From assembly GCA_010093605.1 (NCBI GenBank), contig MU004189.1, forward strand, positions 1,309,834-1,373,833: DNA of 64,000 nucleotides, in the 5' to 3' direction. The stretch is from Lophium mytilinum. Lineage: Eukaryota. A model generated the notes under the pieces. The model did not search any database. It worked only from the letters and a program-made list of their open reading frames with translations, and was not told the origin of the DNA. The position numbers were made by a program, and so were the translations under genes. Each line of letters opens with the position of its first letter. Position 1 is the first letter of the stretch. Shown piece after piece: positions 4,793 through 32,686 of this stretch.

Positions 4793-5409
4793 TTACTTAG
4801 AGGGTTGCTCAATCGTGATGTTCTTCTTAGCCCAGTCCATCTTCTTCTCCGCATACGCCTCCTGAGCCGGTGCTGCAATGTGGTTGAATAGTGATGCTTT
4901 CACGATGACCACTTCTGGATGTAAGGGGACCTCTGTGGTTACAGGACTTCTTTGAAATTAGTAGTGGTCTCAAACGTAGAGTCAGAGTTCGCGAACCTCC
5001 CGCAGTTGCCGCAAAAGTTACGCTGTGAAGAGAGCATTAGCGACAACTCTACGGCGCATGCTCGCCTGGCAATAAACTCTACACGTACTGTGATGGTGTT
5101 TCCACTATCGGTATTGCTATCGTGATAGCTCTTCAGGGAACCTTTTGGATCGCTAACGATGACGGCGGATTTCGCGAGGGTGTAATTGAAAGAGCCGACT
5201 ATGAACTATTAGCTAAAGGCGCCGGGTTGGTTGTGGTTACGTACGGCCGCCTCCAGCTCGCCGACAATTCAGGCTTGGTAGAATCAGAATAAATCGTCGA
5301 AAGCTTGCAGATGACGAGAAACGGACCAAAAGCAGATAAGAGAACCATCAGGGGGATCGGGCAGAGTGACGCGGACACTCCCGCAATTGCAGTGGCCTTC
5401 GGTCGACAT
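4793..5409 (-). CDS. GFA/Mss4-like (CENP-V/GFA) zinc-binding protein, 5 exons
   Basis: Manual splicing of four GT-AG introns gives MSTEGHCNCGSVRV...ICFCLNCRRAGGG...SYHDSNTDSGNTITRNFCGNCGSPV...VKASLF...EQPSK*, the GFA CxC/CxCxxCR/FCxxCGS pattern. The ORF track shows only fragments. Confidence 0.85.
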
Positions 5410-5866
5410 GTTAGTGGATGCAATACAACTCGTTGAGGACTTCCCGATGATTCGGGACAAGAGAAGATGGAAAGGGCAAACTGCAGTTCGAGCGAGGCGC
5501 CGCCACTTTATTCGTTCCATACCTTCCGGGAGCTAGACTGAGGAAGGATGTTAGAGGCCGTAAATGTGGATCGCTGTCGCGAGACCCACTTTATCCACTC
5601 TTTGCACTTCGAAAGTACGAATGGACGCGATTCGATCCGTTTTGTCCCTGTATTACTGCTATGATAAGAAATGCTGATCTCTAGACCTAATTACTATCAT
5701 ACGCAGGTTATATGTAGGATGTTATATTCATTGCTTAGAGTGACTAGACCGAGAACTTGTAGTAGGGAAAGTGAACATTAAGAGTATTACCATCGAAATT
5801 TTGGACAGATAAGAAGATGAGAAGCGCGTAGAATTTCAAAAAGCTCCCGAGAATACATAGAATTCA

Positions 5867-8561
5867 CTACCGGACGGTCCACAGGTTGACGAGATTCCTG
5901 TCGACTGTCGCTAGCAGCTTATTATCTGGCGAAAATGCTAGCACTGGCGAGGCATACATGCTTGTATGCTTAAACTTTTGCAACACCCCGCCTGTTCTAG
6001 TGTCCCATAGTTCTAGTTCGGCTTTAGATCGGTCGTATATAACCAAAAATTTGCTGTTTGGTGAGAATAACGGAACGTAAAGCGTGAAACCATGGAAAGC
6101 ATGTAGAATAACACCTGACCCGGCGTTCCAAAGTCTGATCGCATAACTGTACGCTACGTCAATAGCCGTTGATACCAGCATAGTTCCGTCTGGTGAGTAA
6201 GCCAAAGCAGTGGTATTTTGTGAACTTGTCCATATCACTTTACCGTCGCCACTGTTCCATACTTTGAGGACGTTGCTGCCTTCAGCTGCTGATGCAAGCT
6301 TCCCGCCGCCATGTGGCGACAAGGCCAACGGGCCCTTATGATTGGCTCCGATGTTCCACTTGTACACCCTTTGTTTGGAAGGTATGTCCCAAACCCTGAT
6401 ATAACTATCGCGCGTAACCGTTGCTATCATCTTGTCATCTGGCGAGACGACGTAGTATCTAACCGATCTCCGATGTTTGACCTTCCATTCTGCTGCTTTG
6501 GATCCAAGATATGATACGACGATGAGCGTTGCTCGACCGTCGTGCCTCATTATTCCATCATATTGAAGGACTATTAGTGGCGAGTTGAGTGGTGAGGGCA
6601 GAGTTCCGCGCACGGGCCAGAGAACCTTTTTATACTCTGGTCTGAGGATATTTTTGCCTTTTTGAGCATCTACGTCCCATAACGTAAGCTCATAACCGCT
6701 TGCCGACGCTACTGTCTTGCTATCATCAGAACACCAGCCTACCGCGATCAGCGGGTAATTATATCTTTTGCTTTTCAGCGTCCGCAGGCTGGCTCCGGAG
6801 TAAGGGTCGACAATCCTGACCCACCCATCCCTACATCCTATAGCCAGCAGCTTGCTGTCCGCCGAGAATGCCACGCAACCTACACTGTCGGTACTAACTT
6901 CTAGCGTCCGCAGAAGCTTCCATGGTTCCTCGAAGACTGAGCTGTCTGAAGGACGAAAGCCTACGGTTGTAGTTGGTTGTTGCGTCTGGTTTGTATCTCG
7001 GCCTCCGGATCCAAAGGATGGATACACTGTTGCTGCAATTCCCTCCGATGGAAATGGTGGGTGCAATGTCTGTGCGGAACTGACGGAGCTAGAGGAAGTC
7101 GATTGACTGCCGATATTCCCAGGGGATGAGTAGCCCTGCGCTTCGGGACGGGAGCGGTTCCGTGGACTGTTGTTCTCGCCTTCACGAGGCCTCTTACTCG
7201 TCCACACAGCTCTGTCTGGTTGAGGCATAAAGGTGGTAGAAGGAGATGCTGTAATTCTTGAGTACGTTTGGGGGTCGATAATCCTAGCGCCGGACGTCCC
7301 ACTCCAACTGGCGAATGCCTCTCGAACTGTTGCTTCATCACTTCCCCTCAAGGGCCGTGTGCGCGCTGACAGAGAGACGTCCACGTTGGGTGTAGTGGAC
7401 TGCGTAATTCCTCGAAAGGGGTTGGAGCTGTGCAACTGCATCCAAGGATGGCGAAGCGCTACTGCTGCACTCGTACGGAGATGAGGATTGACTGCCATAA
7501 GGCTGCTGATCAGGGCTGTTCCACTTCCTCCAGTAACAACCTTCAAGTGTTCTTTGGGATATTCCTGAACTCCTTGAACGTAATTTCTGAGCGCGTCTTC
7601 ATCCTGGAATGTGTAATCGCCTGTCAACATCTGAAATGCAATTTCACCTAAAGCCCATAAGTCTGCCGCCTTGTGATCGTAGGAGTCCGTGTATCTGCGG
7701 GCAAAGAATAGTTCTGGCGCCAAATACGATCTCGTGCCTTTGATAGTCGACGGCTCATTTCCATTAGAAGCGCGTTTGCTAACGCCAAAGTCGGCCAGTT
7801 TTACCAACCAAACCCCCGGTGGCTGCGATTCGATAAGAATATTCTATTTCATGTTCGTTAATCAAACTCCTCTGGTGCTCCACGGTTACTTACCGCGGGC
7901 TTGAGGTCCCGGTGTGCAAAATCGTTCTCATGCATCTTTTGCAGCCCTTCGAGTATTTGCCGCGTCAAAAACTGGGCTTCTACTAGCGGTATTTGTCGCA
8001 CCCGCGAGAGGTAGCAGCGTAGATCGCCAAGCGGGTAGTACTCCATAGCAATATAGACCGTGTTTGCATTTTCGTACCATCCGAAAGACTTCACGAAGTA
8101 TGTTTCGTACTGGATCGCATCAGCCAATTCCGCCGTCTCCAAGGGAGCACCTCCAAAACTTACTTTAGGGGCTGAAAACTTTGCCACGGCTTTCAATTCT
8201 CCCAGAAAATCTGCGATCCTGGCTTGCGGAACCTTCCGGATCTTCTTTACCGCGCGAAATGCCCCAGAATTTCTGCCCTCTATGCATTCCTCTAAACATA
8301 CCTCCCCGTATCCTCCTAGGCCAAGGCAACTTGCCTGCTTCCAGTGCTCTTGGAAAGTCGTCCGTCCTCGACTGGCGCTGGACTCGACATAGCTATGAAT
8401 GGTGCGGTCTTCGTGAACAGTCGTTTGGAGATATGAATCGAGCACGAGATCTTCTTGGGCATGATCTAGTATATGGACTCCTGTATTCGCGACCGTATTT
8501 AGTGTCCGTGGGAGTCGCGGTGACGATGGGCGAAGTTGGCCTCACCAGAAGATGCCGCCAT
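5867..8561 (-). CDS. Ser/Thr protein kinase fused to a C-terminal WD40 beta-propeller
   Basis: The kinase motifs are intact: LGLGGYGEV, RAVKKI, HRDLKPANIL, KLADFG, YLAPE. An S/T/P-rich linker precedes ~7 WD40 repeats (VAFSADSKLLA...; LAYSPDGTMLVS...IRLWN; LAFSPDNKLLAT). Inferred introns 8481..8545, 8110..8163 and 7844..7892 give start MAASSGVHILDHAQEDLVLDS at 8561. Confidence 0.9.
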
Positions 8562-8820
8562 ACTCTAACCCCGAACTTGGCTCGTCACACCCTCGACTTC
8601 TTTCTGATGAGGAGTGGGTCAAACCAACTGAGCAGGGCAGGAGGTGTATGTGCTGCGCCGGGTTTGCCTTCGTGCGGGGCTGAGGCTCTGCGTGGGGGCT
8701 GTGTTGAAATCAGGCAGCAATCCAGCCTTGCGAGGTCTATACATTCATCGGCACTAACGTTAAACACTGCCATGAACGCAGAGCCTGGCACTCACTCAGA
8801 ATCAAAATCTCAATCTCTCC

Positions 8821-10465
8821 ATGTCTGGCGCGGAACTCGTTCTCAGCGTAATCGGTGCCGTCGCGGCAGTGGATGTCGCAATCAAGTATATATTTAACAC
8901 CGGGCCCTCTCTACAGCACTGACCGCCAGCCAATAATGAACTTGAAGCTGACAGTTTCTCAACAGATGCGGTTCGAAATTCGTCGCCACGTGTTCCGCCT
9001 TCAAGAATGCGGAGCGCGAAATTCTAGAGCGAGTGCTCCGTATCAACAATAGATGGTACAGAACAAAGTCTCAGCTGGCCTTTCTGAGCCGCGTTTGGTC
9101 CACCCTTGATCGTGAGCACCAGGAGCTACAAAACCAACTACTCGCAAACCTCGTCTCAGCTCTTACCATCGCCGATTCCAAAGCGAGCAGTTTCTTAGCA
9201 GGACACTCGAAGCTAGGCAGAAAAGAGAAACTCAAGTATGTCTTTTTGAAGAAGATTCTAGATAAAACAATCGCCGACCTGGATTTGTGGCAAAACGAGT
9301 TTGACCCGTCCTGGTTTTTGATTCTGAAAATTGGAGGCCAAAACATCGACAAGGAGCTCAATGTTAACATACAAAAGACCCACAATACGATTACCACCGC
9401 TTCAGGCATCCGCGACTCAATCAGGGATAGTCCCCAACAGACTGTGGCTGTACTCTTGCCAAAAGAGGATTTAGATGGAGCTAGGTTCGATGTCCTACCC
9501 TACAGTTCCGCAAAGTTAGCACAGCGAGTAAACTCGACAAGCTGGCTCATTTTGGACCCGATACGAAGCGAGTCTTTACCAGACTTTCAGCAGATGCACA
9601 AGACGGTTCGAGATCTCGCCAGAAGGCTGACCAGGACTGACCCTCTAACATTCTCACTTTTGAAGTGCAGAGGATTAGTGGTGGACAAAGCACAGCTCCA
9701 GTATACCCTAGTCTTCAAAATGCCAGACAACATGGCGAATCCCCGAAGTCTGCGCTCTAGTCTCAACGCGACAGATTTGAAGCATTCTCTCTCCGACCGA
9801 TTTCAGCTCGCGCGACAGTTGGCCCGGGCAGTCTGTTCCATTCACACCTTTGGATTGGTGCACAAGAGCATCAGGCCAGAGAACATTCTCCTCTTCCGCG
9901 ACAACAGCTCGACACTCGGGTCTGCCTTCCTTGTAGGATTTGAGAGCATTCGCCCAGAAGAAGGTTGGACGAGGCTTCGCAGCGATCTTGACTGGGAGAA
10001 GAACCTTTACCGACACCCAAAGCGACAAGGCGTTCAACTTCAGGATCGTTACATCATGCAACATGACATCTACAGTCTCGGGGTCTGTTTGTTAGAAATT
10101 GGCCTATGGACTTCGTTCGTCCAGTACTCCGGTAGTTCTCCAGATCGGACATCTCAAGGTTTCAAGTTCTTCGATAACGTACCAGACTCAGTAAATACTG
10201 CAGATTCGGTGAAGCAACAAATCTTACTCTTAGCGGGAGAAGAGCTTCGAACACGAATGGGAAGCAAATATGCGCGCGTGGTCGAGACTTGTCTCACTTG
10301 TTTAGACGAGGGCAACGAAGACTTTGGGGATGAAACAGAATTTCAAGATGAGGATGGGGTGTTGGTTGCCGTTCGATACATTGAAACAGTGAGCTGCTCT
10401 ATTCCTTAACAAACAACCGCTCATATACCTAGGTCCTCTTACAAATCAGCAACATCTTAGTATGA
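8821..10465 (+). CDS. HeLo/HELL-like N-terminal domain plus pseudokinase (fungal het-s-domain/kinase-like family)
   Basis: Exon 1 encodes the hydrophobic N-terminal helix MSGAELVLSVIGAVAAVDVAIK. Intron ~8886..8964 joins it in frame (KCGSKFVATCSAFKNAEREILERVLRINNRWY) to ORF 9033..10409. The C-terminal kinase-like fold has HKSIRPENILLF, LVGFE, LYRHPKRQG and HDIYSLGVCLLEIGLW. Last intron 10389..10432, stop at 10465. Confidence 0.82.
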
Positions 10466-10515
10466 ATGATCCTGGACTTAGACGTTGCCCAAAACTTGAT
10501 GCCATCAGCAATTGT

Positions 10516-11067: not shown

Positions 11068-12722
11068 CGTGGGTGTTTATTTGATGGGGTATTTGATTAG
11101 GGGCATGTTAAATAGATGTAGTTGTTGGTATAACCACTAAATAGATGGAGTTGAGGTCATCATAACCTCATCTGGCGATCGCAAGGCGACGGCATCATGA
11201 CGTCCTCTCTTAAAATTTCCATCAAAGTAATCATTGAGATGCGAACTATCGGTATCCATAGATTGTCGAACGATAAGTAGAAATTGCCATAGGTGGAGCG
11301 GTGGTGTCGAGTGCGAAGTTGAAGCGTGCTACAGGAAATGCGGCGTGAATCTTCTCTAGAATCACAACCATTGGTCGGAAATTGATCAAATTTCTACATC
11401 ACTCATTGGCTAGATTGGGATTAAAAACAGGAGTCACGTGATACCAGGTATGCCTCCGCCAAATCTACGAATTTCGTTCCACATCCAAGAGCTGAGCATC
11501 CTTCAGGCTATGCTTATATTCTTTGGGCCCTGCGCCTTGTTTGTCTCAATAAAAGGGGAACAGATTCATCGATTGTTCTATCCTGCCCAAGATAAATCGG
11601 ACCTATCTTTGTGCCGTGAACTCCTAAGTTTCTGTAGCCTCAGCGCAGTATAAAACACGGCATACAATCACTCCGAATACCCCTCTGCGGCTCATGAACC
11701 CTCTCTGTTTGTTACCGGCCCCCGGAAGTCCGCGTTTTGGATCATTTCTGATTGCGCGCGCCAGTTTCTTCGCCGCATGCAGGAGGCCCTTCACTCCCAA
11801 ACTGCGAGCAACCGCCACACCAACACTGAACGTGTCATCTGCGTTTCAATTTAACAACGCACCCTCAAGCCTCCATAGGGCTGAATCCCCAGGCTGTGGT
11901 CATCTAAGGCACCTCCGCCTTTTGCACGCGCTGCCGCCGCTAAGCATGCACACCAGCGAGGCGCAGCTCGCATTGCGGCGTCCTTTGCCTTTTCTGTGCT
12001 GCGGATCAACATCAAAGCCCCATGACCGCTCTGCATCAGGGTCGCGCTTATGCAGAACTCGGACTGTACGCGCCCGCTTGGACTACAGCTGTATTTCCTG
12101 GGACTCTTGACTGGCCGCCTCGTGCCGGCAGTGTGGTAAGACAGAGCCAGATCCACTACTGCTGATGCGGAGTGACCCTGAATTAGACGCAAAATGCGAG
12201 GAGCCTCATCCATCACAGCCCCCAATACACCACCAGTTCACTGCCATTAGGTAACCAGAGATCGCTGGCGTCAGTATACATATAGGAGTCCCTCCTAATC
12301 TCTCTCACCGCAAACCCTATTACTTCCGCTTTCTATTCGTCAAGTGTCGTTCGTTGCCAGATATCGCCTTCCATTTTTAATAAGCTTGACGATCGTTCCT
12401 GCATCTACTACACTTTCGCCCGTCAGCACTCACCTCTTGTTACACCTAGACGTCACAAGGCAACTAAGAACTCCCTGTATTACAACTTCAATTCTTTGTG
12501 ACTCAAGTCTCCTACGCCTCGCGCAACGTCACCTAGGGTAGGCTTCTACGCCTCTCGAAGTTGTACATATACATACAAAGAATCCACGGAAACACGAAAA
12601 GTAGCCTAAGGACGAGTCAAGTTCTATATAAGCTCGAGCGCAAACCTTTATAGTTTACACCCACACGAATAGCACATTCACATCCCTCATACTTCAATTC
12701 TTACACGTTCTTACTGATTGCC

Positions 12723-14816
12723 ATGCACGACCGCAATCCTCACGGAACAGCAGGCATGGATCTCGCAACTCTCGAAACAAATCCACACGCGCCGTTGAGG
12801 CTTCTCTCCCTCGACGGAGGCGGTGTACGCGGCCTATCTAGCCTGATGGTTCTCGACGATCTCATGGAAAGTATCGCCATAGAAGAGAAGCGACTCGGTC
12901 GGAGACCACAAAACGACAGAACACCCCTCAAGCCCTGCGACTACTTCGATTTGATCGGAGGTACGAGCACCGGCGGCATCATCGCTATCCTCCTTTCCCG
13001 CCTTCGATTGGACACCAAGCAATGTATTGGCATCTACTCAAAACTCGCCGAGCAGATCTTCAAGCATGACCGGTCTATCAAAGTCGCGGGCATGAAACTG
13101 CCAACAGGCTCAACCCGCTTCTCCGGCCTCGTCCTCGAAAAATCCATCAAGTCTGCCCTTGTGGATCTAGGTTACGACGAGAACGAGCTCATGTGGGACG
13201 ACTCGCTCTTCGAAGAAGTGCCCGACAATGACCCCTTGCCGCGTGATAGCATCTGGGCCGACACCCACTCTCCGATTAACATGACCGTCTCCCCCGTCGA
13301 GTCAGCGAGAGCAGACAGTCTCCTCCCAACCGGAGGCGACAGCAAAGCACCCACCAGCAACATCGCAGACGAAATACCAATGCCCAAGCATGCTCTCACC
13401 GAGCCTTTTGGGCCAGGCCTCAGCAAACAAGCACGCACCTCGACCTGGAAGCTTCATCCACGCCAATCCGTGCACCAAAAAGTCGGCAAGAAAGGCTGCC
13501 GCGGCTTCGTCCTAACCTCCCTCAAGAACGCGCTCGGCCTCCCCCGAATCCTCTCCACCTACGACCCCAACGACCGCCAAACCCGCATCTGGGAAGCCCT
13601 GCGCGCCACCTCGGCCGCGCCCACCTTCTTCGAAGAGATGCAATTCGGCACACCCAAAGTAACCTACCTCGACGGCGGCGTCGGCTTCAACAACCCCTGC
13701 GCCGAAGTCGACTACGCCGCCAAAGCGCTGTGGGAAGGCCGCTCCATCGGCACCATCGTGTCCGTCGGCACCGGCCTGCAGTCGATCCCCTCGGTCAAGA
13801 AAATCGCCTCCTGGCTCCCCTTCGGCCTCGGCACCGACATCTCCCTCGCGTCTGCTCTCGCGAATATGGCGACCAGCACCGCGCGTGTTGATAACGAGAT
13901 GAAGCGCATGTACCTCGAGAGCGACACGCGCTACTACCGCTTCGACGTCGACCGTGGGCTCGCGAACATCTCGCTCGAGCAGTGGATGCGCGAGGACGAG
14001 ATGGCGGCGCTGACGGAGCAGTATATGCGCGACGCGAAGCAGCTAAGGCGCGCGCGGCAGCTGGGCGAGCTGATGGCGAAACTGTCGGCGCTGCCGCCGC
14101 GTTTTGAGATCTCGGCGACGCATTTCCGGATCGGCATGGACGGGCGCGGGCTCATCGATCAATCATTTAATCTTGCCCAGGTGGATTTCAAGACCGGGAT
14201 GCCCCTAGGCGTCGCGCCGCATCTAGATGACCTGCCGAAGATGTCGAAGTTCCGCAATTCGAGCCCGAGTGGGGAGAGCGGGTTGGCGATTGATGCGAAT
14301 GGGAGGATGCGGAAGGTGTATCCTGTGGCGTCGGATCTCGATGGGGATGGGAGGAGGCAGGAGGCGGCGGTGTTCCAGTGCGTGCGCGCGGATAATGTCT
14401 GTTTGAGGACGCTGAAGACGGGGATTCCGCAGGGGAAGTATCGTGTTGTGTTTATTGTCTCTTTCCAGAACAGTAAGTATACCGCGCCTGAGAATATCGT
14501 TTTCAGCGTTGGGAAGCCGTTTGATGCGCGGACGTTTACGCAGCGGTTTGTGGATGTCAATATCACGCCTGATGCTGTGGGCGTGCTGCTGCACCCGGAT
14601 GCGGTGAGGGTACGCGTTGGGAAGAAGAGGTATGCGGAGAACAAGGGGAAAGGGTGGTTGGAGATTGAGGGGGATGTGGAGGTCCAGGTGGGACTCGATG
14701 GGGCGTTGGGGTTTGTGGTCAGTAAGAGGTATGAGGAGGATTGCTTCGTGGATGGGTTTACATTCGGGGGAGTAAGGCTGGAACCGGTGTTCGGGGGCCA
14801 GGTTAGTAGGGGGTGA
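12723..14816 (+). CDS. Patatin-like phospholipase (PNPLA/iPLA2-gamma-like) with extra C-terminal beta-sandwich domain
   Basis: Intronless 697-aa ORF with LLSLDGGGVRG, FDLIGGTSTGG (catalytic Ser), ATSAAPTFF, YLDGG (catalytic Asp) and VSVGTG. Confidence 0.93.
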   Translation: MHDRNPHGTAGMDLATLETNPHAPLRLLSLDGGGVRGLSSLMVLDDLMESIAIEEKRLGRRPQNDRTPLKPCDYFDLIGGTSTGGIIAILLSRLRLDTKQCIGIYSKLAEQIFKHDRSIKVAGMKLPTGSTRFSGLVLEKSIKSALVDLGYDENELMWDDSLFEEVPDNDPLPRDSIWADTHSPINMTVSPVESARADSLLPTGGDSKAPTSNIADEIPMPKHALTEPFGPGLSKQARTSTWKLHPRQSVHQKVGKKGCRGFVLTSLKNALGLPRILSTYDPNDRQTRIWEALRATSAAPTFFEEMQFGTPKVTYLDGGVGFNNPCAEVDYAAKALWEGRSIGTIVSVGTGLQSIPSVKKIASWLPFGLGTDISLASALANMATSTARVDNEMKRMYLESDTRYYRFDVDRGLANISLEQWMREDEMAALTEQYMRDAKQLRRARQLGELMAKLSALPPRFEISATHFRIGMDGRGLIDQSFNLAQVDFKTGMPLGVAPHLDDLPKMSKFRNSSPSGESGLAIDANGRMRKVYPVASDLDGDGRRQEAAVFQCVRADNVCLRTLKTGIPQGKYRVVFIVSFQNSKYTAPENIVFSVGKPFDARTFTQRFVDVNITPDAVGVLLHPDAVRVRVGKKRYAENKGKGWLEIEGDVEVQVGLDGALGFVVSKRYEEDCFVDGFTFGGVRLEPVFGGQVSRG

Positions 14817-22860: not shown

Positions 22861-23198
22861 ATTTTTTAACACATATGTGCACCTCACCCGACCCACCCTG
22901 ATCACGTGCGCCGACGTCGCTGTGGTTGTGAGGCTTCAATCTATGCAGCTAGCCCAGCCAAATATACTCTCGCCTTCATAATTGTTACCGGGTTCTGAAG
23001 ATACCTTTTCGGCCGTCGCTTCTCAGCCTCGCCTGCGTGCAGATGGGGGCGCTTTCAGCCTTGCCTCTGCAAGTTAAAAGACAGCCTGATGTCCTCCCTG
23101 CTTTATCACTTTGAACTAGCATTCCCCGATTTCCCGGTGTCTGTGCCATACTTGGCCTTCCAGCGTTCCGCTGTGTTGTCAAGACATCCTAGAGAGTC

Positions 23199-26100
23199 AT
23201 GGAGAACAACATCGAGCTTGGAGGCATCCAAGCCAAAATCCAGTCGCAAGGTTCCAGTTTCGACAGCCGCCGTCGTGAAGTGCGAAGACGGCGATTCCAG
23301 TCTAGCGAATACTCAACCCGCAAGAGATCCAACAACGACCACGCTCTTGAGGAAGAGTCAGCCTCACAGCCGCTCTTGCTGATCCTTCGTATTCTAAGCT
23401 ACCACAAGATTCGACTCTTCTCGGTTAACCCAAATCAAAGATGGAATTTACGACAGGCTCTCGGCGATGGAAGCACATTTTCTGTGGACGGGGCAGAGTT
23501 ACCTATCTGGGACGCCTTGGCTCACTTGAGATATCGCAACCTTGACATAAAGGGTCCCAAGGAAAAGTTCAACTTCGTCGATCATACGCGCATAAGCTGG
23601 CAGCACACAACGCTTGTAGCCTATAAAGCCTTGGTCGGTAGGAAAAGCATGGACAGAGGCATGATCATGCAGGATCTCATTACAGAACTCCGGGTTCTTT
23701 GCCATCGCCCGCTTCAGAAGCATCCCAATTTCGTTCGACTGCTCGGAGTAGCTTGGATCAGTGAGATTGACATGGGGTATACGGATGACGCCGAGCCACG
23801 TGAATGGCCAACAGTGGTCGTGGAGAAAGCACCCCACGGTTCGCTTCTTGACTTTTTGAGCTCAGAAGAATTCAAGACAACGCGCTCGTCGTTAATGGCG
23901 AAACTGAATCTCTGCATAGACGTTTTGATCGCAATCGTAGTAAGTGTTTGCAGTCCACTTTAGGAAGTGACGCCTAATATGAATTAGGCCCTACATGCGT
24001 GCGATATCTTGCATGGCGACATCAAATGCGAGAATGCTCTCGTCTTTAACACAGAAAAGGGGACAGCGGAAAACTGGAGAGTGAAATTATCGGACTTCGG
24101 TCATGCTATTCTGAACATGCAGGGCAAAGGTTCCAGTGGCTTCACAAGGCGAGAAGTTATTGGTACGGATTTCTACAGCCCCCCAGAGCTTAGTAGCGCC
24201 GAGGCAGTGATAGATGTTGCGAACATGAAAAGCGTCGATGTATGGTGTTGGGGTCTTTTGATGTGGAGAGTGTTGATCGACGGAATGGAATACAGCGATG
24301 CAGAGGGACATCAAATTGATCCAGGCGCAATGCGAGCGCTCAGAGAGCAGGGCAATATTGCTGCCACAGCAAAAGATGCTTGCAAGAATTACCTCAATCT
24401 ACACCACAGTCGGGAAGGCGCAGCTCTAAGTTCGATCGTTGGGATCCTAGTAGACGCCCTTTCCCATAACGCAGCCGACCGCCCAGATGCTCTCTCACTG
24501 CTCAGCCGTTTGAGAAGGGCCTCATCTGACAGGTGAGTGAGACGCCAGACCAGACTGGAAGGTTGCTCAAACTAATTTCGATTAGGGAAGCTGAGGCGGT
24601 AGAGAATTTAGTGCCGGAAAAGCCCCAGTCGATAGAATCTCTCGAGGCCTTACCTTTCTTTAATGTACGTATACCATTCTCCTAATTATATTACTCCATT
24701 CTAACGTCTAGGAAAGCTCACACAATACTACTACGACCTTTGGATGCTCTTGGCCGTTCCTCGCGACATATTGATCGAGCTGCAATCGTTGCATGCCGTT
24801 GACGCGGATGGTTCCCTAGAAGCCACTTTCCAGCTTGGACTCTGCCATGTTGCCGGCTTTGGAGTGCAACGAGACGGCCAACAGGCAGTGGACTTAGTCA
24901 AGCGCGCCGCGGAAGGAGGTCTTTCCAAAGCGCGATTGGCTCTTCCCCGGATTGCAGGCGCTTTTGGAGTCGCTCTGTCCCCCGAAACTCGTCAGCTTGT
25001 AATCTCTTGGCTAATCGAAGCATCGAGGAACGGCCCTGGGATCGCTTGGATGGAATTGGAGCGACTTGGCTTTGAGCAGCGGATCTTGGGTCCTTCCGAA
25101 CTCCTGCGAACTGCAACAAACATCGCCAAATCCCCACACGATTCTGGATTGCTGCATGCTGTAAAGCTAGGTGATGAAGAAGCCGTCCGGAAATTAAGTA
25201 CACATGGCAGTTTTCCTGGACAATTCGGAGAAACTCCCTTACATTGCGCAACCCTATTGCCCAAAAGCGTTGGTCTTCCAATTGCTGAAATCTTGCTCAA
25301 AGGCGGCGCCAACATATATCAGCCGACATCTCGACAATATCAACTATCGAGAGATGACTTTATCCTTGAAGCGATGCCTGAACACACCACACCGCTGGAA
25401 TGGGCCATCATAAACGACCGTGTTTCCTTCGTGAGACTCTTTCTTGAGTTTAGCGAAAGTTCAGATCTACCATCTGAAGTCTATGGATCGACAACCACAC
25501 CACTTGCATATGCCGCCAGGCATCAAAGTATCAAGTGCCTTAAATACCTCTGCAATGAGCATGGTCGCAGTAATGCTGATATCAACACCTTCGACAAATA
25601 CGGATTCTCGGCCTTTTACTACGCCGTGCGCCCCGATCTATTGGACCGTGTGTTACGCTACGTGCCGGAAGAGAGAGATGGGCCTACAAGATCGGATATC
25701 TCGCCTGTTGTCGCGCGCGAGGAAAGCATTATCAATATGCTTGTAGCTTCTGGCTCGGACATGAAGGTCAGCTCCGCGGGACATTTCAACTGTCTACATC
25801 TCATCACAGCATTCGGCGAGCCATCTACCCTTGAGGCGGTTCTAAATATTAAAGGAAGCGATCTACTCGTCAACCAAGAGTCTCAATACGGTTGGACGCC
25901 TTTGGTGGATGCTATTTTTTGGAGGCGCAAAGATTCATTCAAACTTCTTCTCGAACATCACGCGAGTCCAAAAGACATATGGCCCAAAACCAAGCGACAT
26001 GCAATTCACACATGTTGTCTCCTACCAAACACGTCGTCGGCGCTATTCTTCGCTGAAACATTACTCCATGAGCATCCATCCTGTCTGCATGCCCGAGATA

Positions 26101-27663
26101 CATGGAATCGAACACCCTTGCATTTCGCGGCTATTTTTGGCAAGCTAAAACTGATCGACCTGTACTTGTCTAAGGGTGCGAAGCTGCTTGTATTTGATAT
26201 TCACCGCATTACCCCTCTAGGATTGGCGGTAGAAGCTAGGTCGATGAGAGGTGTCAGAAGACTCCGAGATGAACATGACAGCAGGAACCTACCTCTCCTA
26301 GGATTCAAGACATCTTCTTTGTCGCCCAGGTACTTCTCGGTATTCCATTTCTTACTTCAACCTGGAGGGAAGTCTCCAACGTATGTTCGAAACTCTCGAG
26401 TTCCGTCACCTTATCCCGGTTGCGCCGATCATCCATTCTCAGGACCCTCTCTGAATGTCCTGGACGACCTACTCAGTCATTACAAATATCGGGTCAGTTT
26501 TGGCATCAATTTCATCGAAAGCATTGTACATTCTCCCTACAAGCATGAAAGCGGGATCAGGGAGGCCGTGCAAATGGCGAATTGGGATGCCGTTGACATG
26601 ATCCTGAAATCGGGAAAGTTCACGGTCGATTTACGGCACTTGCTCAAAATCGCGTTCGATCAGCGCATTCTGGGCTCAGGGCATTTTGCGAGCGAAGATG
26701 CGAGGAAAAAGATGGTCAAATACCTTTGGCAAGAACAAGAAGAGGAGTACCAAGCGCTGTATAAAACTCGCCAAACATCACTAATGCGTTTCCTATGGAG
26801 ATATCATTACCGGATGTACGGCACCATGGAACAGGAACAATATCAACGAGTCAATCAATGGCTTTTTGACAACCGCTACCTGTGGCACAAACCCATGTTT
26901 CCAGATCTGGACTTATGGGTCCACACCCGCTTGCCGGTCACGCTGATTCTTTCTATCTTCGTAGGGTGCTTGCTCTGTCCACTCCTAGTCTGCCTTGCCA
27001 TTATAACCGCTGATCCGGCCACGCAATATGGAACTCGCAACAAAGGCCGAACTGGTGTTATGGTGTTTTGCGTAAGTCAAGCGTTGATCCGATGCTGGTT
27101 GCATTCGCTGATTAGTTCCGTAAAGACCAGTACTCTACTTTTCTTTCCGCAAATGCTCCGCGGCTTGACAATCGCTTACTGTGCATCTCAGAAAACGCTA
27201 AAACTCCGCAGCTGGCAGATGCGACTTGTTCAATCTGTTCTTTGCTTGGCCGTACCCGCTCTCGGAGTCTTCAACATCTGGATTTTGAACCCTGAAAATG
27301 CCAACATTGTACGGTTTCATCCGAAATATTCGCTGGCGAAAGGTGTTGCATGGGATGCAAGGGTTTTGCCCCCCTGGAGACAGAACATCCTTGGGCATTT
27401 CTTCCGACTGTGTGATGTTCTACTCGCATGGTCTGTAATTGCTTATGTGTAAGTGTTTCCGTCGACTCCGCCGACTCATCTATTGTTCTCGACGACTGAA
27501 GGAGTACAAGCTGATTATATGCAGAGTCTTCCCAGTGATCATACTAGGCACTTGGTGGATTACCACGTTCAATTTCCGCAAGACTCCACGACTTGACGTG
27601 AGCGAGGTAAGCTTGCAGAAAACGTATGTTACATCGCGGAGGGGGTGGCCGTGGCTGGAATGA
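23199..27663 (+). CDS. Protein kinase + Sel1-like repeat + ankyrin repeats + C-terminal transmembrane region
   Basis: Kinase motifs LGDGSTFSV, VAYK, HPNFVRLLG, HGDIKCENAL, KLSDFG, YSPPE and DVWCWG. Introns 23940..23987, 24533..24585 and 24665..24716 join ORFs 23199, 24009 and 24744 in frame. Sel1-like ATFQLGLCHVAGFGVQRDGQQAVDLVKRAAEGG; ankyrin GETPLH, TPLEWA, GWTPL, RTPLHFAA; hydrophobic C-terminal helices. The 3' exons are uncertain. Confidence 0.85.
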
Positions 27664-27902: not shown

Positions 27903-29075
27903 CTAGTTGTTTGACCCAGTGCCTGCGACGAATACTACTAATACCGTTGTGAACCTACACACGACAGTTTGATCGTGGTCAGTTCGGCCATTAAAATCTA
28001 GGAGAGGGAGATTGACATACGTTGCACCGGCTACAAATATCTCTCCTGTTCGTGCTTTAGTGAGCATAGACAACACTATGATAAATATCGTTGACGATAT
28101 TGCAATCACCAGCAGCCGCAATGCGACGCTATCAATCGCATTCACAATTATGACGGGTATGAGGAGAAGCAACACAAGCAGGCTCGCCACCAAAAAGCGC
28201 CCTAACCGAGCAACCAGAGCACTTGAAAAGATGTGCACATTTGGATCGCGCGAGACCTGCAGACGGGGGCTCTGGGACCGAATCAGTACATTCTCCCGCA
28301 CGTACAGCGTTTTCGGATTCTAGTGGGAGCCATACTTTGTTGAACTTCGTTGCAATCCAGATCAAGAAGCCCTCGATTGGACCCTCAAACGCATTTAATG
28401 CTCTATCCGCAGGGCTCGCTAATGTAGCCAGGTCTTCGCCTTTTCCAAGATACGCTGTTTCTTGCCGGGCCAAACACCCAGTGCTGTCGATCCAGTTCTC
28501 TAAGTTTGCAATGTCTCGCCGGTTTGGGCGCTCTAGTCCCAGTACCCGTTCATTGCGGTGGATCAGCTCATCTATCAACACCTCCTCAGCGATGACAGCA
28601 CATAAGAGAGCGAACAAGGAGACCTACCATAATCAGCTAATGCTGCATCGATGTTTTCTAGCACCTGCTTGCGGGCCGGGTTGCTATCGCGCCGGTAACT
28701 TCCAAGGAACAGGACCTTGGGCTCTTCGCGGTCGATTTGCTCGAGCTGTTCCTCAAGCTGGGAGAGCTTGTCTTGCTTGTGGAGGAGCATTCGAGCTCGC
28801 AGCGCGGAAAAGCGGCGACATATCTGGAAGTACGGATGGGAGCTAATGAGTGCTGCGAAACGGGGATAGCCAGATGGGAAGTCTTCGACTGTGTTTCATG
28901 GATTAGAGCTCATCTGGATAATTCGTCTACGTCTCATTGAAAGGGTACCTTGGGTGATCGGCGGTTTGACGGAAGTCTCGTTGCCACGTCGAAATGCTCG
29001 GAGTAAGCGAGTGCACAGTGAAGTAAGGCATCGCGGCATACGCTGAGAGGCTTCTAGTGGGATCAGATCAGCCAT
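27903..29075 (-). CDS. DUF6594-type fungal protein with C-terminal transmembrane helices
   Basis: Spliced translation ...VEDFPSGYPRFAALISSHPYFQICRRFSALRARMLLHKQDKLSQLEEQLEQIDREE...YLGKGEDLATL...LLLIPVIIV...IFIIVLSMLTKARTGEIFVAGAT...VLVVFV, which matches DUF6594 motifs. The start exon (ATG at 29075) is inferred. Confidence 0.82.
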
Positions 29076-30028: not shown

Positions 30029-32332
30029 TTATCCCTCTACATCAAAGAACGACGCCCCATCAAGGTCCAGTCCGGCATCGAAACTTTGCAAAACCCTCCC
30101 GTGGAAAGCCCTCCCCAATTCACACTCAATCTTATCGTCCTTCTCAACACCGAAGTCTCCCGTCAGGCAAGTGACCGCCGCATCCTCATACGCCAAGCCC
30201 ATATCATGGCTCAACAACCCTTTCGACTTGTTAAGTATCTCATGTCGCAGCGCCAGAAGTCCTTTCTGCTTCACAAATCTGCCAAACATACTTGGAAGAA
30301 GATCCCAAAGACCGATTTCGAGCAACAGTAGCCCGAAAGAGTAATAGTCGTGTATTTTTGAGTGCCTTTTGGGCGGATAGCGCCCTTGGCGGTCTGGGTG
30401 GCGGTATATGTCGTTGACAACGTCCTTCTCGTATCGCTTCGTGGACGACTCGTCGCTTTCGCGGGTGAAGTCGAAGCCGCACAGGTAGGGCTCCGAGTAG
30501 TCGATGCGATATCTGTTCTTATGTCTGAAGAAGACGATGTTGTAGCTCGCAATACCCTGATGAACCCACCCAACACCGTGCCACTTCAGCAACGCTTGGC
30601 CGATCTTTCGTGCGATGTTGAAGCGCTCACCTAATGTTGGCCGCTGGTGTCGTGATCGAGTGCTACTTGCCCTTTGACTGTGGTTCCAGAGGATGGTTTG
30701 AAGACTGACCGGCACATACTCGTTCCCGACGGGATTAATAAATATTAAGCCATGTCGACCCTGGTCTTCAGCGGAGAAATAACCCAGACACTTCGGAGTG
30801 CGAAAACCATCTGACTGAGGTGCTTGAAGGACGTCAGCAAGGCGTTTCAATCGACCTTGGCTGAGATCATCCAAGTTCTTATCGGAGTCATCGAGGTGCT
30901 TGTATTCTACAAGAACGGTTCCGTGAGTAGGGTGTTGTTCAGTGAACAGTGATACGGTCAAGGGAGTATCTGCCTGCGGGTCTGGTGTATACGACGCTCT
31001 TTCTAACAAGTTATCGGACTCTACCGGAAAGTTGGCCATCAATCGCACTTTGAGTGATTCTACAATCCCGAGAATCCGCATTTCAGGATCACTGATTGCC
31101 TTCGTCAAACAATCCTTTTGATGGAGCTCTGGCAATGCCATCACGTTCCTTTCAATCGTATCTTGCAAAGCTAGGATACTAGTCTCAAAGCTCCGCAAGA
31201 ACCTGTGTACTTTGATCTCGTCTACGGTTGCGCTGTTTTGGTGGTTTCCATAAGAAGAAAATGAGGTCGCCAGCAGCTTCAGAGCGTTTCCTAATCGAAC
31301 GTTGAAGATGTCCCAGGCGCTGCGGATCTCTTTTTTTGAAGGGTTGGGCATCTTTCTTAGTTGGGCCAGTGATTGGACCTGCGGTGGATGCTCCAAAACA
31401 AAATCGCGAAGACACTCAGCTCGAGACACAACATCAGTGACCATAAGTCCTGATATTTCTCTAGGAGCGTAGGTTTTGAGCCAGTAGATGATTTCGTCAA
31501 GAAGTTCCCCGGACAGTGGGCTGCGTACCGTCATTCTAAGCGTCAAAGCTGCCTCTTCGGAATTCAGCCGTGGCGTTTCAGCAGAAATAGAAATGAGAGG
31601 CTCTAAGCGTATTGTCTCTCGTCTACCTCCCAGCGGGAAGTACAGCGGGGTTTGGAGAAGGCAGCGGTCCGCGCGAGCAAGTTGATGATGTATATCAGCT
31701 ATCCGTGCGTGGCCTTTTGCCTTGAGAGAATCTTCTACTTCCTTGATCCAAGCTGTGGTGAAGGAGTCTTGGCCTGGGCTCGCGGCTTGACAGCCCATCG
31801 CACATGACGCCTGAAGCTCGACGTTTGGGGGGACAGTACGGTCACTAGCTCCTCGTGCAGCTTGTGCAGCATAGCAGCAGTCTAGCAGCAGGAGGACGTC
31901 CCCTCTGGCGTGTACTAGCTTTGGCTGTATTTCATACCAGTCCAGCGTTGGCCCATCCTCACTTTGAGCGGCCCAAACCGCACGCCGCCGCCTATCTTTT
32001 GAAGCGAGGAAATCTTGATCGCCATGACCCCCGTAATGGACGATTGCTAGAGACCGTTTCGGGGGAGACTCTAGCCGAGTCAGGAATTGTGCAATCGCTG
32101 CATCTAAGGCAAGGTGGCTATCGCGGGTTGGAATGGCGAATTGATGGACACGGAATTTCAGTAGCTCTTCGAAGAGCTTCTTGAGCCTGAGAGCTTCCGT
32201 CAGGAATCCAGGCTCGTCGCTCTCTTCCCAATAAAGAAGCAGGACTTGAATAGAGTCATAGTCGTTTTTCGGATTCCTGTCAAATTGCTCCTTCAAGCCT
32301 ACATTGATCTTACTCTTCAGTGCGTTGGTCAT
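30029..32332 (-). CDS. Caspase-like (peptidase C14-fold) domain plus C-terminal pseudokinase of the same family as 8821..10465
   Basis: Intronless, with ATG at 32332 in gccgccATG context. N-terminal VLLLYWE, LAIVHYGGHG (His) and DVLLLLDCCYAA (Cys) form a caspase-type dyad. C-terminal VLVEYK, PTLGERF, WVHQGIASYNIVFF, PYLCGFDFTR, IYRHPDRQG and HDYYSFGLLLLEIGLW. Confidence 0.85.
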   Translation of the reverse strand: MTNALKSKINVGLKEQFDRNPKNDYDSIQVLLLYWEESDEPGFLTEALRLKKLFEELLKFRVHQFAIPTRDSHLALDAAIAQFLTRLESPPKRSLAIVHYGGHGDQDFLASKDRRRRAVWAAQSEDGPTLDWYEIQPKLVHARGDVLLLLDCCYAAQAARGASDRTVPPNVELQASCAMGCQAASPGQDSFTTAWIKEVEDSLKAKGHARIADIHHQLARADRCLLQTPLYFPLGGRRETIRLEPLISISAETPRLNSEEAALTLRMTVRSPLSGELLDEIIYWLKTYAPREISGLMVTDVVSRAECLRDFVLEHPPQVQSLAQLRKMPNPSKKEIRSAWDIFNVRLGNALKLLATSFSSYGNHQNSATVDEIKVHRFLRSFETSILALQDTIERNVMALPELHQKDCLTKAISDPEMRILGIVESLKVRLMANFPVESDNLLERASYTPDPQADTPLTVSLFTEQHPTHGTVLVEYKHLDDSDKNLDDLSQGRLKRLADVLQAPQSDGFRTPKCLGYFSAEDQGRHGLIFINPVGNEYVPVSLQTILWNHSQRASSTRSRHQRPTLGERFNIARKIGQALLKWHGVGWVHQGIASYNIVFFRHKNRYRIDYSEPYLCGFDFTRESDESSTKRYEKDVVNDIYRHPDRQGRYPPKRHSKIHDYYSFGLLLLEIGLWDLLPSMFGRFVKQKGLLALRHEILNKSKGLLSHDMGLAYEDAAVTCLTGDFGVEKDDKIECELGRAFHGRVLQSFDAGLDLDGASFFDVEG

Positions 32333-32686
32333 GGCGGCGAGACCTCGAGAGGGGAGATTCAAGAGAAGAAAGGAGTATTGGCACCAACAGGCTGCCTAGG
32401 CTGAAGGCAAGCAGCAAACCGCCTCGAAAGTGAGCCTTGCGGCTTTAGCGCCATAAATGCGCCTAGCCTCCTGCATGTCTCCAAGAATAGCGGCATGACC
32501 GGTCAATGCGGCAGTATTTGATCAGGGGATACTTCGAGTCTCTGGACATGTTGGAGAGTGGTGGAGGTGATACGGGGAGCCCCGCTGTAGAATACGATCC
32601 CGGCCTGGTGGAGTGAGGCTGACGGTGTGCAGATCAGCCTCGGGCTGTTTTCCATCAAAGATAAGTTTACTCGAGAATATCTCACA

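Follow-up and report, generated by a model that had tools for sequence, protein, structure and literature searches.

A divergently transcribed kinase–WD40 and pseudokinase gene pair of filamentous ascomycetes as a candidate module analogous to RIPK3–MLKL

Necroptosis is defined by the phosphorylation of MLKL by RIPK3. For the fungal relatives of the killing domain, the triggers described are NOD-like receptors (NLRs) and amyloid templating, and for the MLKLs of plants we know of no linked sensor kinase. Here we analysed a window of 64,000 nucleotides from Lophium mytilinum (GenBank assembly GCA_010093605.1, contig MU004189.1, positions 1,309,834 to 1,373,833 of the forward strand; coordinates below are those of the window), which contains two divergently transcribed genes. 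Gene A encodes a predicted active kinase with a WD40 propeller, and gene B encodes a helical domain followed by a pseudokinase. We found that this arrangement is conserved among relatives of B, and we propose, with a probability of roughly 0.55, that the pair forms a module in which a sensor kinase would act on a pseudokinase executioner, analogous but not homologous to RIPK3–MLKL.

Among animal systems, the logic of the pair appears closest to that of vertebrate RIPK3–MLKL. As in that system, the presumed effector joins an N-terminal helical bundle to a C-terminal pseudokinase, and the best fold match of B is MLKL (structure 4btf). The DFG motif is replaced in B by GFE, which MLKL likewise reads, a conserved hydroxyl residue follows the GFE, and an active kinase partner is implied. 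By contrast, the partner kinase of B is CAMK-like with a tail of WD40, tetratricopeptide (TPR) or ankyrin (ANK) repeats rather than a TKL kinase with a RHIM, the two genes are adjacent and divergent, B has neither a Gly loop nor an identifiable beta-3 Lys, and the N-terminal domain of B showed no sequence-level homology to the MLKL four-helix bundle (4HB) in a profile search of Protein Data Bank (PDB) sequences. Because its kinase domain is CAMK-like and it has no RHIM, kinase A is, judged from its sequence, an analogue of RIPK3 and not a relative.

Among fungal systems, the closest logic seems to be that of the gasdermins, which, in the sections of a 2025 review that deal with such clusters, adjoin proteases fused to WD40, TPR or ANK repeats (PMC12881547). 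There, as proposed here, a pore-former lies beside an activating enzyme fused to superstructure-forming repeats (PMC12881547), but in the A/B pair a kinase takes the place of the protease, and a helical bundle with a pseudokinase that of the gasdermin. The HET-S/NWD2, HELLP and HELLF systems, as treated in the same sections, share with the A/B pair a proposed executioner with a hydrophobic N-terminal helix, a controller whose gene adjoins that of the executioner in a cluster of two, and the repeat types found in the controllers (PMC12881547). Unlike these systems, the A/B pair has no NOD domain or amyloid motif, B would be regulated by a C-terminal pseudokinase, its neighbour is a kinase, and B is unmatched by the Pfam HeLo and HeLo-like families. 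The two-domain architecture of B has a counterpart outside animals in plant MLKLs, outlined as a HeLo-like domain plus a pseudokinase (10.1101/681015). HELL–pseudokinase proteins receive a passing mention in the 2025 review, so the architecture as such was already known; section 18 of the review calls for work on the extent of necroptosis conservation (PMC12881547). We found no paper on a conserved repeat-tailed kinase neighbouring such a pseudokinase in the full-text literature, with subscription journals and supplements outside the search, and the conserved linkage, as read from sequence comparison, is a new result.

Conserved linkage of genes A and B

An earlier note on this DNA, made from the letters alone, had proposed a RIPK3/MLKL-like death switch encoded by two divergent genes with starts at 8561 and 8821. 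We found the gene pair as described: both gene models match public L. mytilinum proteins, and the two ATGs are separated by a spacer of 259 bp (8562..8820) that presumably serves as a shared promoter. A scan of the spacer for bacterial-type promoters and terminators, a type of scan unsuited to fungal DNA, gave no match. Gene A (5867..8561, minus strand) consists of four exons (8561-8546, 8480-8164, 8109-7894 and 7843-5867) and encodes a kinase–WD40 protein of 841 residues (public protein P0121), to which its exon-4 translation is 100% identical. Only with its annotated first intron of 65 nt (8481..8545, minus strand) removed does the kinase frame connect to the ATG at 8561. Gene B (8821..10409, plus strand) has two exons (8821-8885 and 8966-10409) separated by a GT..AG intron of 80 nt (8886-8965), and its product, a helical bundle with a pseudokinase, is 100% identical to the public 502-residue protein P0001, whose contig is equal in length to that of P0121. 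The C terminus of B (10384-10509, plus strand) may differ from that of the public model, in which a GTGAGC at 10387 is translated as coding sequence and the stop falls at 10409; many B relatives have ...YIEK, then a short intron, then a conserved tail of about ten residues with the pattern [VI]L.L..I.[VI], and a KLDAIS-like stretch with no stop lies downstream at 10492-10509.

Contigs from a run termed X1, whose RNA label is a guess and whose contigs prove presence but never absence, include sequence of both genes. The contig over gene A skips 7844-7893 and 8110-8163, each bounded by GT..AG when read on the minus strand, indicating that spliced RNA of A exists. It is colinear over 8164-8574, so that the 8481-8545 intron is kept unspliced. 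A second contig spans gene B colinearly from 8783 to beyond 10700 with the 8886-8965 intron unspliced, and no X1 contig covers 8575-8782.

The earlier note had tied its proposal to a conserved linkage with kinases among homologues, and this linkage is present. We scanned metagenome contigs with an alignment of the B family, which gave 80 loci, and ran the kinase domain of A against these loci by tblastn, counting matches at E ≤ 1e-5 as A-like. An A-like kinase was found directly upstream of B on the opposite strand in 38 of the 80 loci, with 336-1328 bp between the blast-matched segments (not between start codons). Merging loci that were at least 95% identical reduced the 80 loci to 65 clusters, of which 32 had a divergent kinase and 6 had one that lay within 3 kb but was arranged differently. 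A further 8 had none (scored only where at least 1500 bp of upstream sequence were available), and 19 were too short to judge. Among the assessable clusters, a divergent A-like kinase was thus present in 32 of 46, and a kinase in any arrangement in 38 of 46, at B identities of 34-51%. As a control, 335,491 bp of flanking DNA more than 3 kb from B gave an A-like match at only 2 loci, one of which is a partner 2.75 kb away. The recurrence of the adjacency in 32 of 46 assessable non-redundant loci argues that it is not due to chance.

Other observations agree with this linkage. The identity between B proteins, taken pairwise, correlated with that between their partner kinases (Mantel r = 0.66, 35 pairs), with none of 2000 permutations giving a value as high. 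The paired state was scattered across the whole B tree, on both of its sides in a quick tree, a distribution that fits an old association with occasional loss. In the protein database, the closest relatives of A and B come from contigs of the same sizes (36,803 and 113,219), and the Bathelium A and B locus tags are consecutive (..009111 and ..009112), both of which we take as hints. One public protein, P0068 (Monosporascus sp. MG133, 732 residues), contains a complete B-like protein joined to part of an A-like kinase (HRDLKPA) and to WD40 repeats of high regularity, and from its sequence looks like a merged model of two neighbouring genes; P0095 (720 residues) may be another. Pfam searches of the open reading frames (ORFs) around the 8 partner-less B loci gave no common alternative neighbour, only unrelated enzymes or nothing, with the exception of one NB-ARC–TPR gene. 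This NLR-type gene (5208-7250, plus strand of its locus, L013) lies 2.3 kb downstream of the B-like gene. These results suggest that the two genes are probably one co-inherited signalling module of filamentous ascomycetes.

The kinase of gene A and the pseudokinase of gene B

Consistent with the claim that A is a catalytically intact kinase with a WD40 propeller, we found every expected kinase motif and both types of domain. The kinase domain (residues ~53-319; 7436..8340, minus strand) is matched by Pfam Pkinase on both exon pieces and has a GLGGYG loop, the beta-3 lysine Lys84 (8247-8245), the alpha-C Glu, HRDLKPAN (HRD at 7914-7906), DFG (7792-7784) and APE. The WD40 beta-propeller region (residues ~489-841; 5870..6928, minus strand) is matched by Pfam WD40 and beta-propeller families over residues 306-657 of the exon-4 piece, and the tail of A matched the WD40 protein 2ymu with an E value of 1.7e-32. 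The repeats are divergent, and Tandem Repeats Finder gave only a trivial 28-bp match on the DNA of gene A. Pfam returned only Pkinase and WD40-type families for A, and thus no NACHT or NB-ARC domain. The solved kinases closest to P0121 are the CAMK-like CDPK, RAD53, STK17A/B and CaMKII (E values from 1e-29 to 1e-23), followed by PKA. A is therefore predicted to be a catalytically competent, CAMK-like Ser/Thr kinase.

The partner kinases at the other loci largely keep these catalytic residues: the DFG Asp is present in 43 of 43 aligned rows, while 25 of 30 have HRD and 29 of 35 have RAVK. An intron directly after HRDLKP is common to many of them. To describe their tails, we took 42 hand-picked ORFs, out of 198 downstream of the kinase, from 31 loci and scanned them at E ≤ 1e-8. 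WD40 repeats were found in 10 loci, ankyrin repeats in 2, TPR_10/12 in 1 and a KA1 domain in 1, and 17 loci had no domain at this threshold. At several loci (L012, L020, L049 and L058), the kinase and the repeats are encoded within one ORF. The partner kinase with the KA1 domain (7142-8932, minus strand of locus L017) carries this kinase-associated, membrane-binding domain at its end instead of repeats (E 3.3e-10). WD40, TPR and ANK are given as the canonical fungal NLR repeat types in one paper (PMC12258605).

The kinase-like domain of B (residues ~180-486; 9438..10358, plus strand) is of the DUF7580 type, as judged by weak Pfam matches and the family alignment. As the earlier note had read from this one gene, it has HKS in place of HRD (9861-9869) and GFE in place of DFG (9936-9944), and a motif scan found GxGxxG nowhere in the protein; a beta-3 Lys could not be identified. 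These features extend to the whole family. Across an alignment of 59 members, H321, K322 and G346 never vary, and F347 and E348 are kept in at least 90%, so that the B family is, by sequence, one of pseudokinases throughout, with the catalytic residues lost family-wide. The activation segment is strongly conserved, and position 357 (9969-9971), nine residues past GFE and a threonine in B, is Thr or Ser in 59 of 59 members.

The kinase fold of this C-terminal half of B is backed by Foldseek and by profile matches. A profile of the whole family matched BRAF, RAF1, LIMK1, JAK/TYK2, RIPK1 and eIF2-alpha kinases among the best 60 of 970 PDB sequences at E ≤ 1. The Pfam matches (Pkinase, PK_Tyr_Ser-Thr and DUF7580) are all weak, and P0001 scored 22.9 bits against PF24476 (DUF7580), below the gathering cut-off of 27; B is thus a divergent relative of DUF7580 and not a formal member. 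Some relatives exceed the cut-off (for example, P0219 with 45.8 bits and P0286 with 46.1 bits). Among close family members, 16 of 59 matched DUF7580 at E ≤ 1, and of the wider relatives, 47 of 67 did so at E ≤ 1e-4. To our knowledge, no function has been described for DUF7580, and we found no paper on it in the full-text literature. The B family is large, with at least 1784 proteins at E ≤ 0.001 among 8000 candidates scored, and its named members come from Dothideomycetes, Leotiomycetes, Sordariomycetes, Eurotiomycetes and lichen-forming lineages (Pezizomycotina).

The N-terminal domain of B and a possible executioner role

Several observations are in line with the proposal that the N terminus of B is HeLo- or MLKL-like. 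In the AlphaFold2 model, the N-terminal domain (residues 1-175; 8821..9425, plus strand) is a helical bundle with long helices at residues 3-32, 39-68, 71-100 and 108-133 and two shorter, brace-like helices (pLDDT 78.2 for full-length B and 77.8 for the domain alone). Exon 1 (8821..8885, plus strand) encodes a hydrophobic N-terminal helix (residues 1-22, by hydropathy); residues 1-21 are the most hydrophobic stretch of the domain, with a best 17-residue Kyte–Doolittle mean of 2.15 compared with 1.11 elsewhere. The same holds across the family, in which all 17 N termini examined have their top 17-residue hydropathy within the first 28 residues. When the full-length model was searched with Foldseek, mouse MLKL (4btf) ranked first (E 5.7e-8, 495 columns, TM 0.30/0.36), with plain kinase domains ranking below. 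In the ESM Atlas, the first matches of residues 1-178 were PF14479 HeLo clusters, with scores of 0.94 (181 shared features) and 0.92, which we rate as a lead and not as proof. The structural neighbours of the domain there, again leads only, were HeLo+DUF7580 clusters, plant Rx_N (TM 0.60-0.62) and PF17111-bearing clusters.

A number of results weigh against an executioner of the MLKL type, and most of them concern this domain. In VIA superpositions, the domain matched the Rx coiled coil (Rx-CC; Z 12.0), the CC-R domain of NRG1.1 (Z 10.1) and the executioner domain of MLKL (Z 8.7, root-mean-square deviation 3.0 over 112 aligned residues; Z 8.6, deviation 3.2 over 114), but scores of 8.6-12 fall inside the usual range for any helical bundle. 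A wider VIA fold search listed no MLKL or HET-s among its best 50 matches, and non-lytic bundles (Cbl TKB, IncA and designed repeats) are among the fold matches of the domain. A Foldseek search of the PDB with the domain alone returned nothing at E ≤ 0.001, the best matches being IncA (0.057) and Rx-CC (0.24). At the sequence level, none of the 59 family members matched Pfam HeLo (PF14479) or HeLo-like (PF17111) at E ≤ 1, nor did P0001 when searched by itself, and the 13 PDB sequences matched by a profile of the domain at E ≤ 10 included neither MLKL nor HET-s. An hhalign comparison of 17 B N termini with 4 HeLo–DUF7580 proteins gave a probability of 0.64% (E 0.089), with an alignment in register and both profiles thin. 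In addition, a search for residues 1-178 among shorter proteins gave no homologue at E ≤ 0.01.

The remaining objections concern the partner and the linkage. The nearest solved kinases place A outside the TKL/RIPK group. The core tetrad of a RHIM has the form [IV]Q[IVLC]G, and a regular-expression scan for it was negative in both P0121 and P0001. The threshold for an A-like kinase, tblastn at E ≤ 1e-5, would let in other Ser/Thr kinases, and the claim of a specific A-like clade comes from common motifs together with the common intron after HRDLKP. No kinase is nearby in 8 of the 46 assessable clusters, and two near-identical pairs of loci are discordant in arrangement (L004 compared with L038, and L023 compared with L037). 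Species phylogeny might account for part of the co-divergence of A and B. In the X1 contigs, each gene has its 5′ intron unspliced, and such forms would truncate both reading frames; this may reflect either regulated intron retention or a choice made in assembly.

Thus, the N-terminal domain of B is not demonstrably a HeLo domain or a 4HB, and its HeLo identity is weak, coming from language-model similarity. Setting the fold and feature leads against the negative Pfam and profile results and the generic fold scores, we describe B as having a modelled MLKL-like architecture with an unproven HeLo affiliation. The comparison of the pair with RIPK3/MLKL made in the earlier note is partly supported: the full-length fold match speaks for it in B, and it fails for A, which is CAMK-like, has no RHIM and is no relative of RIPK kinases.

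In the module that we propose, the repeat tail of A (WD40 here; WD40, TPR or ankyrin in relatives) would sense a ligand or promote assembly. B would be an MLKL-like effector, in which a hydrophobic helix and a four-helix bundle are restrained by the C-terminal DUF7580-type pseudokinase. Activated A would bind B and phosphorylate the activation segment of its pseudokinase, for which the conserved Thr357 is the best candidate acceptor site. The pseudokinase would then let go of the N-terminal bundle, leading to membrane insertion and to killing or arrest of the cell. We infer the binding of A to B, the phosphorylation and its acceptor site, the membrane attack and the death outcome, as well as the direction of control, which might be activation or restraint.

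The same adjacency and co-divergence would suit any obligate partnership, including a kinase–pseudokinase signalling pair that does not kill. In such a pair, B would serve A allosterically or as a scaffold, much as pseudokinases can switch on active kinases or set their location, and the N-terminal domain of B would be a coiled coil or a membrane anchor for localisation. The lack of a sequence-level HeLo signal in that domain and the many non-lytic bundles among its fold matches agree with such a pair. However, MLKL is the best match of full-length B, relatives fuse the same pseudokinase module to HeLo (4/67) and caspase-like (4/67) domains, both of which are death-type effectors, the hydrophobic extreme N terminus of B is conserved, and the partner tails are of NLR repeat types; we therefore consider a non-killing pair unlikely. 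A mere coincidence of unrelated neighbours would draw on the abundance of kinases and the tight packing of fungal genes, but it is hardly credible given a divergent arrangement in 32 of 46 clusters at 34-51% protein identity, compared with 2 matches in 335 kb of distal flank, and given that A and B co-diverge.

The linkage data apply equally to a guard-type inverse of our proposal, in which A would keep B off by constitutive phosphorylation or binding, and death would follow once a pathogen or a non-self allele, for example, had inhibited, degraded or titrated A, with the repeat domain acting as bait and not as receptor. Divergent transcription from a spacer of 259 bp would suit a toxin-like protein and a keeper that are expressed together in stoichiometric amounts. 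The kinase is missing from eight clusters, so B does not always depend on A; yet a guard would leave those B genes that lack a kinase constitutively lethal unless they were restrained in another way. The present data do not distinguish the direction of control, and we hold the guard-type inverse to be rather improbable and favour activation of a pseudokinase executioner by a sensor kinase.

Relatives of the pseudokinase and wider implications

Elsewhere in the window, an ORF of 788 residues (30032-32395, minus strand) encodes P0189, which also belongs to the pseudokinase family but is only distantly related to B. It is 30% identical to residues 251-480 of B (E 5e-19). The C terminus of P0189 is a DUF7580 domain with HQG in place of HRD and GFD in place of DFG, and its N terminus is caspase-like, with a Peptidase_C14 match of 23.7 bits (cut-off 21.4) and His and Cys motifs. 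A kinase–ankyrin gene (23193-27449, plus strand), which has HGD in place of HRD and keeps DFG, lies 2.6 kb from the P0189 gene; the two genes are convergent, with one uncharacterised ORF (28163-28843) in between, and may be a second pair of a repeat-tailed kinase and an effector pseudokinase. A patatin-like phospholipase gene (12654-14813, plus strand; Pfam Patatin E 1.4e-22) lies 2.2 kb from the A/B pair. Patatin is another effector domain type of fungal NLRs.

A phmmer search with the pseudokinase part of P0189 returned 3923 representatives at E ≤ 0.001. We scanned 67 of these relatives and found DUF7580 in 47, preceded by Pfam HeLo in 4, by Peptidase_C14 in 4 and by ankyrin repeats in 1. 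The presence of HeLo and Peptidase_C14 in front of DUF7580 suggests that the pseudokinase is a C-terminal module that is combined with varied N-terminal domains of death type.

These combinations raise a broader possibility, which we put forward tentatively and regard as doubtful: the DUF7580 pseudokinase may be a general phospho-receiver switch, and the repeat-fused kinases (WD40, TPR or ANK) of Pezizomycotina may be innate immune receptors without a NOD domain that fire interchangeable N-terminal executioners, among them MLKL/HeLo-like bundles (gene B) and caspase-like proteases (30032-32395). If true, this would amount to a whole kinase-based branch of regulated cell death in fungi, independent of NLRs and amyloids and with thousands of members. 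The variable WD40, TPR and ANK tails suggest a receptor class that would parallel the NLRs without their NOD domain. The A/B pair supplies a concrete candidate for the missing upstream kinase, and with these two genes it can be tested directly whether fungi undergo a necroptosis-like death driven by phosphorylation.

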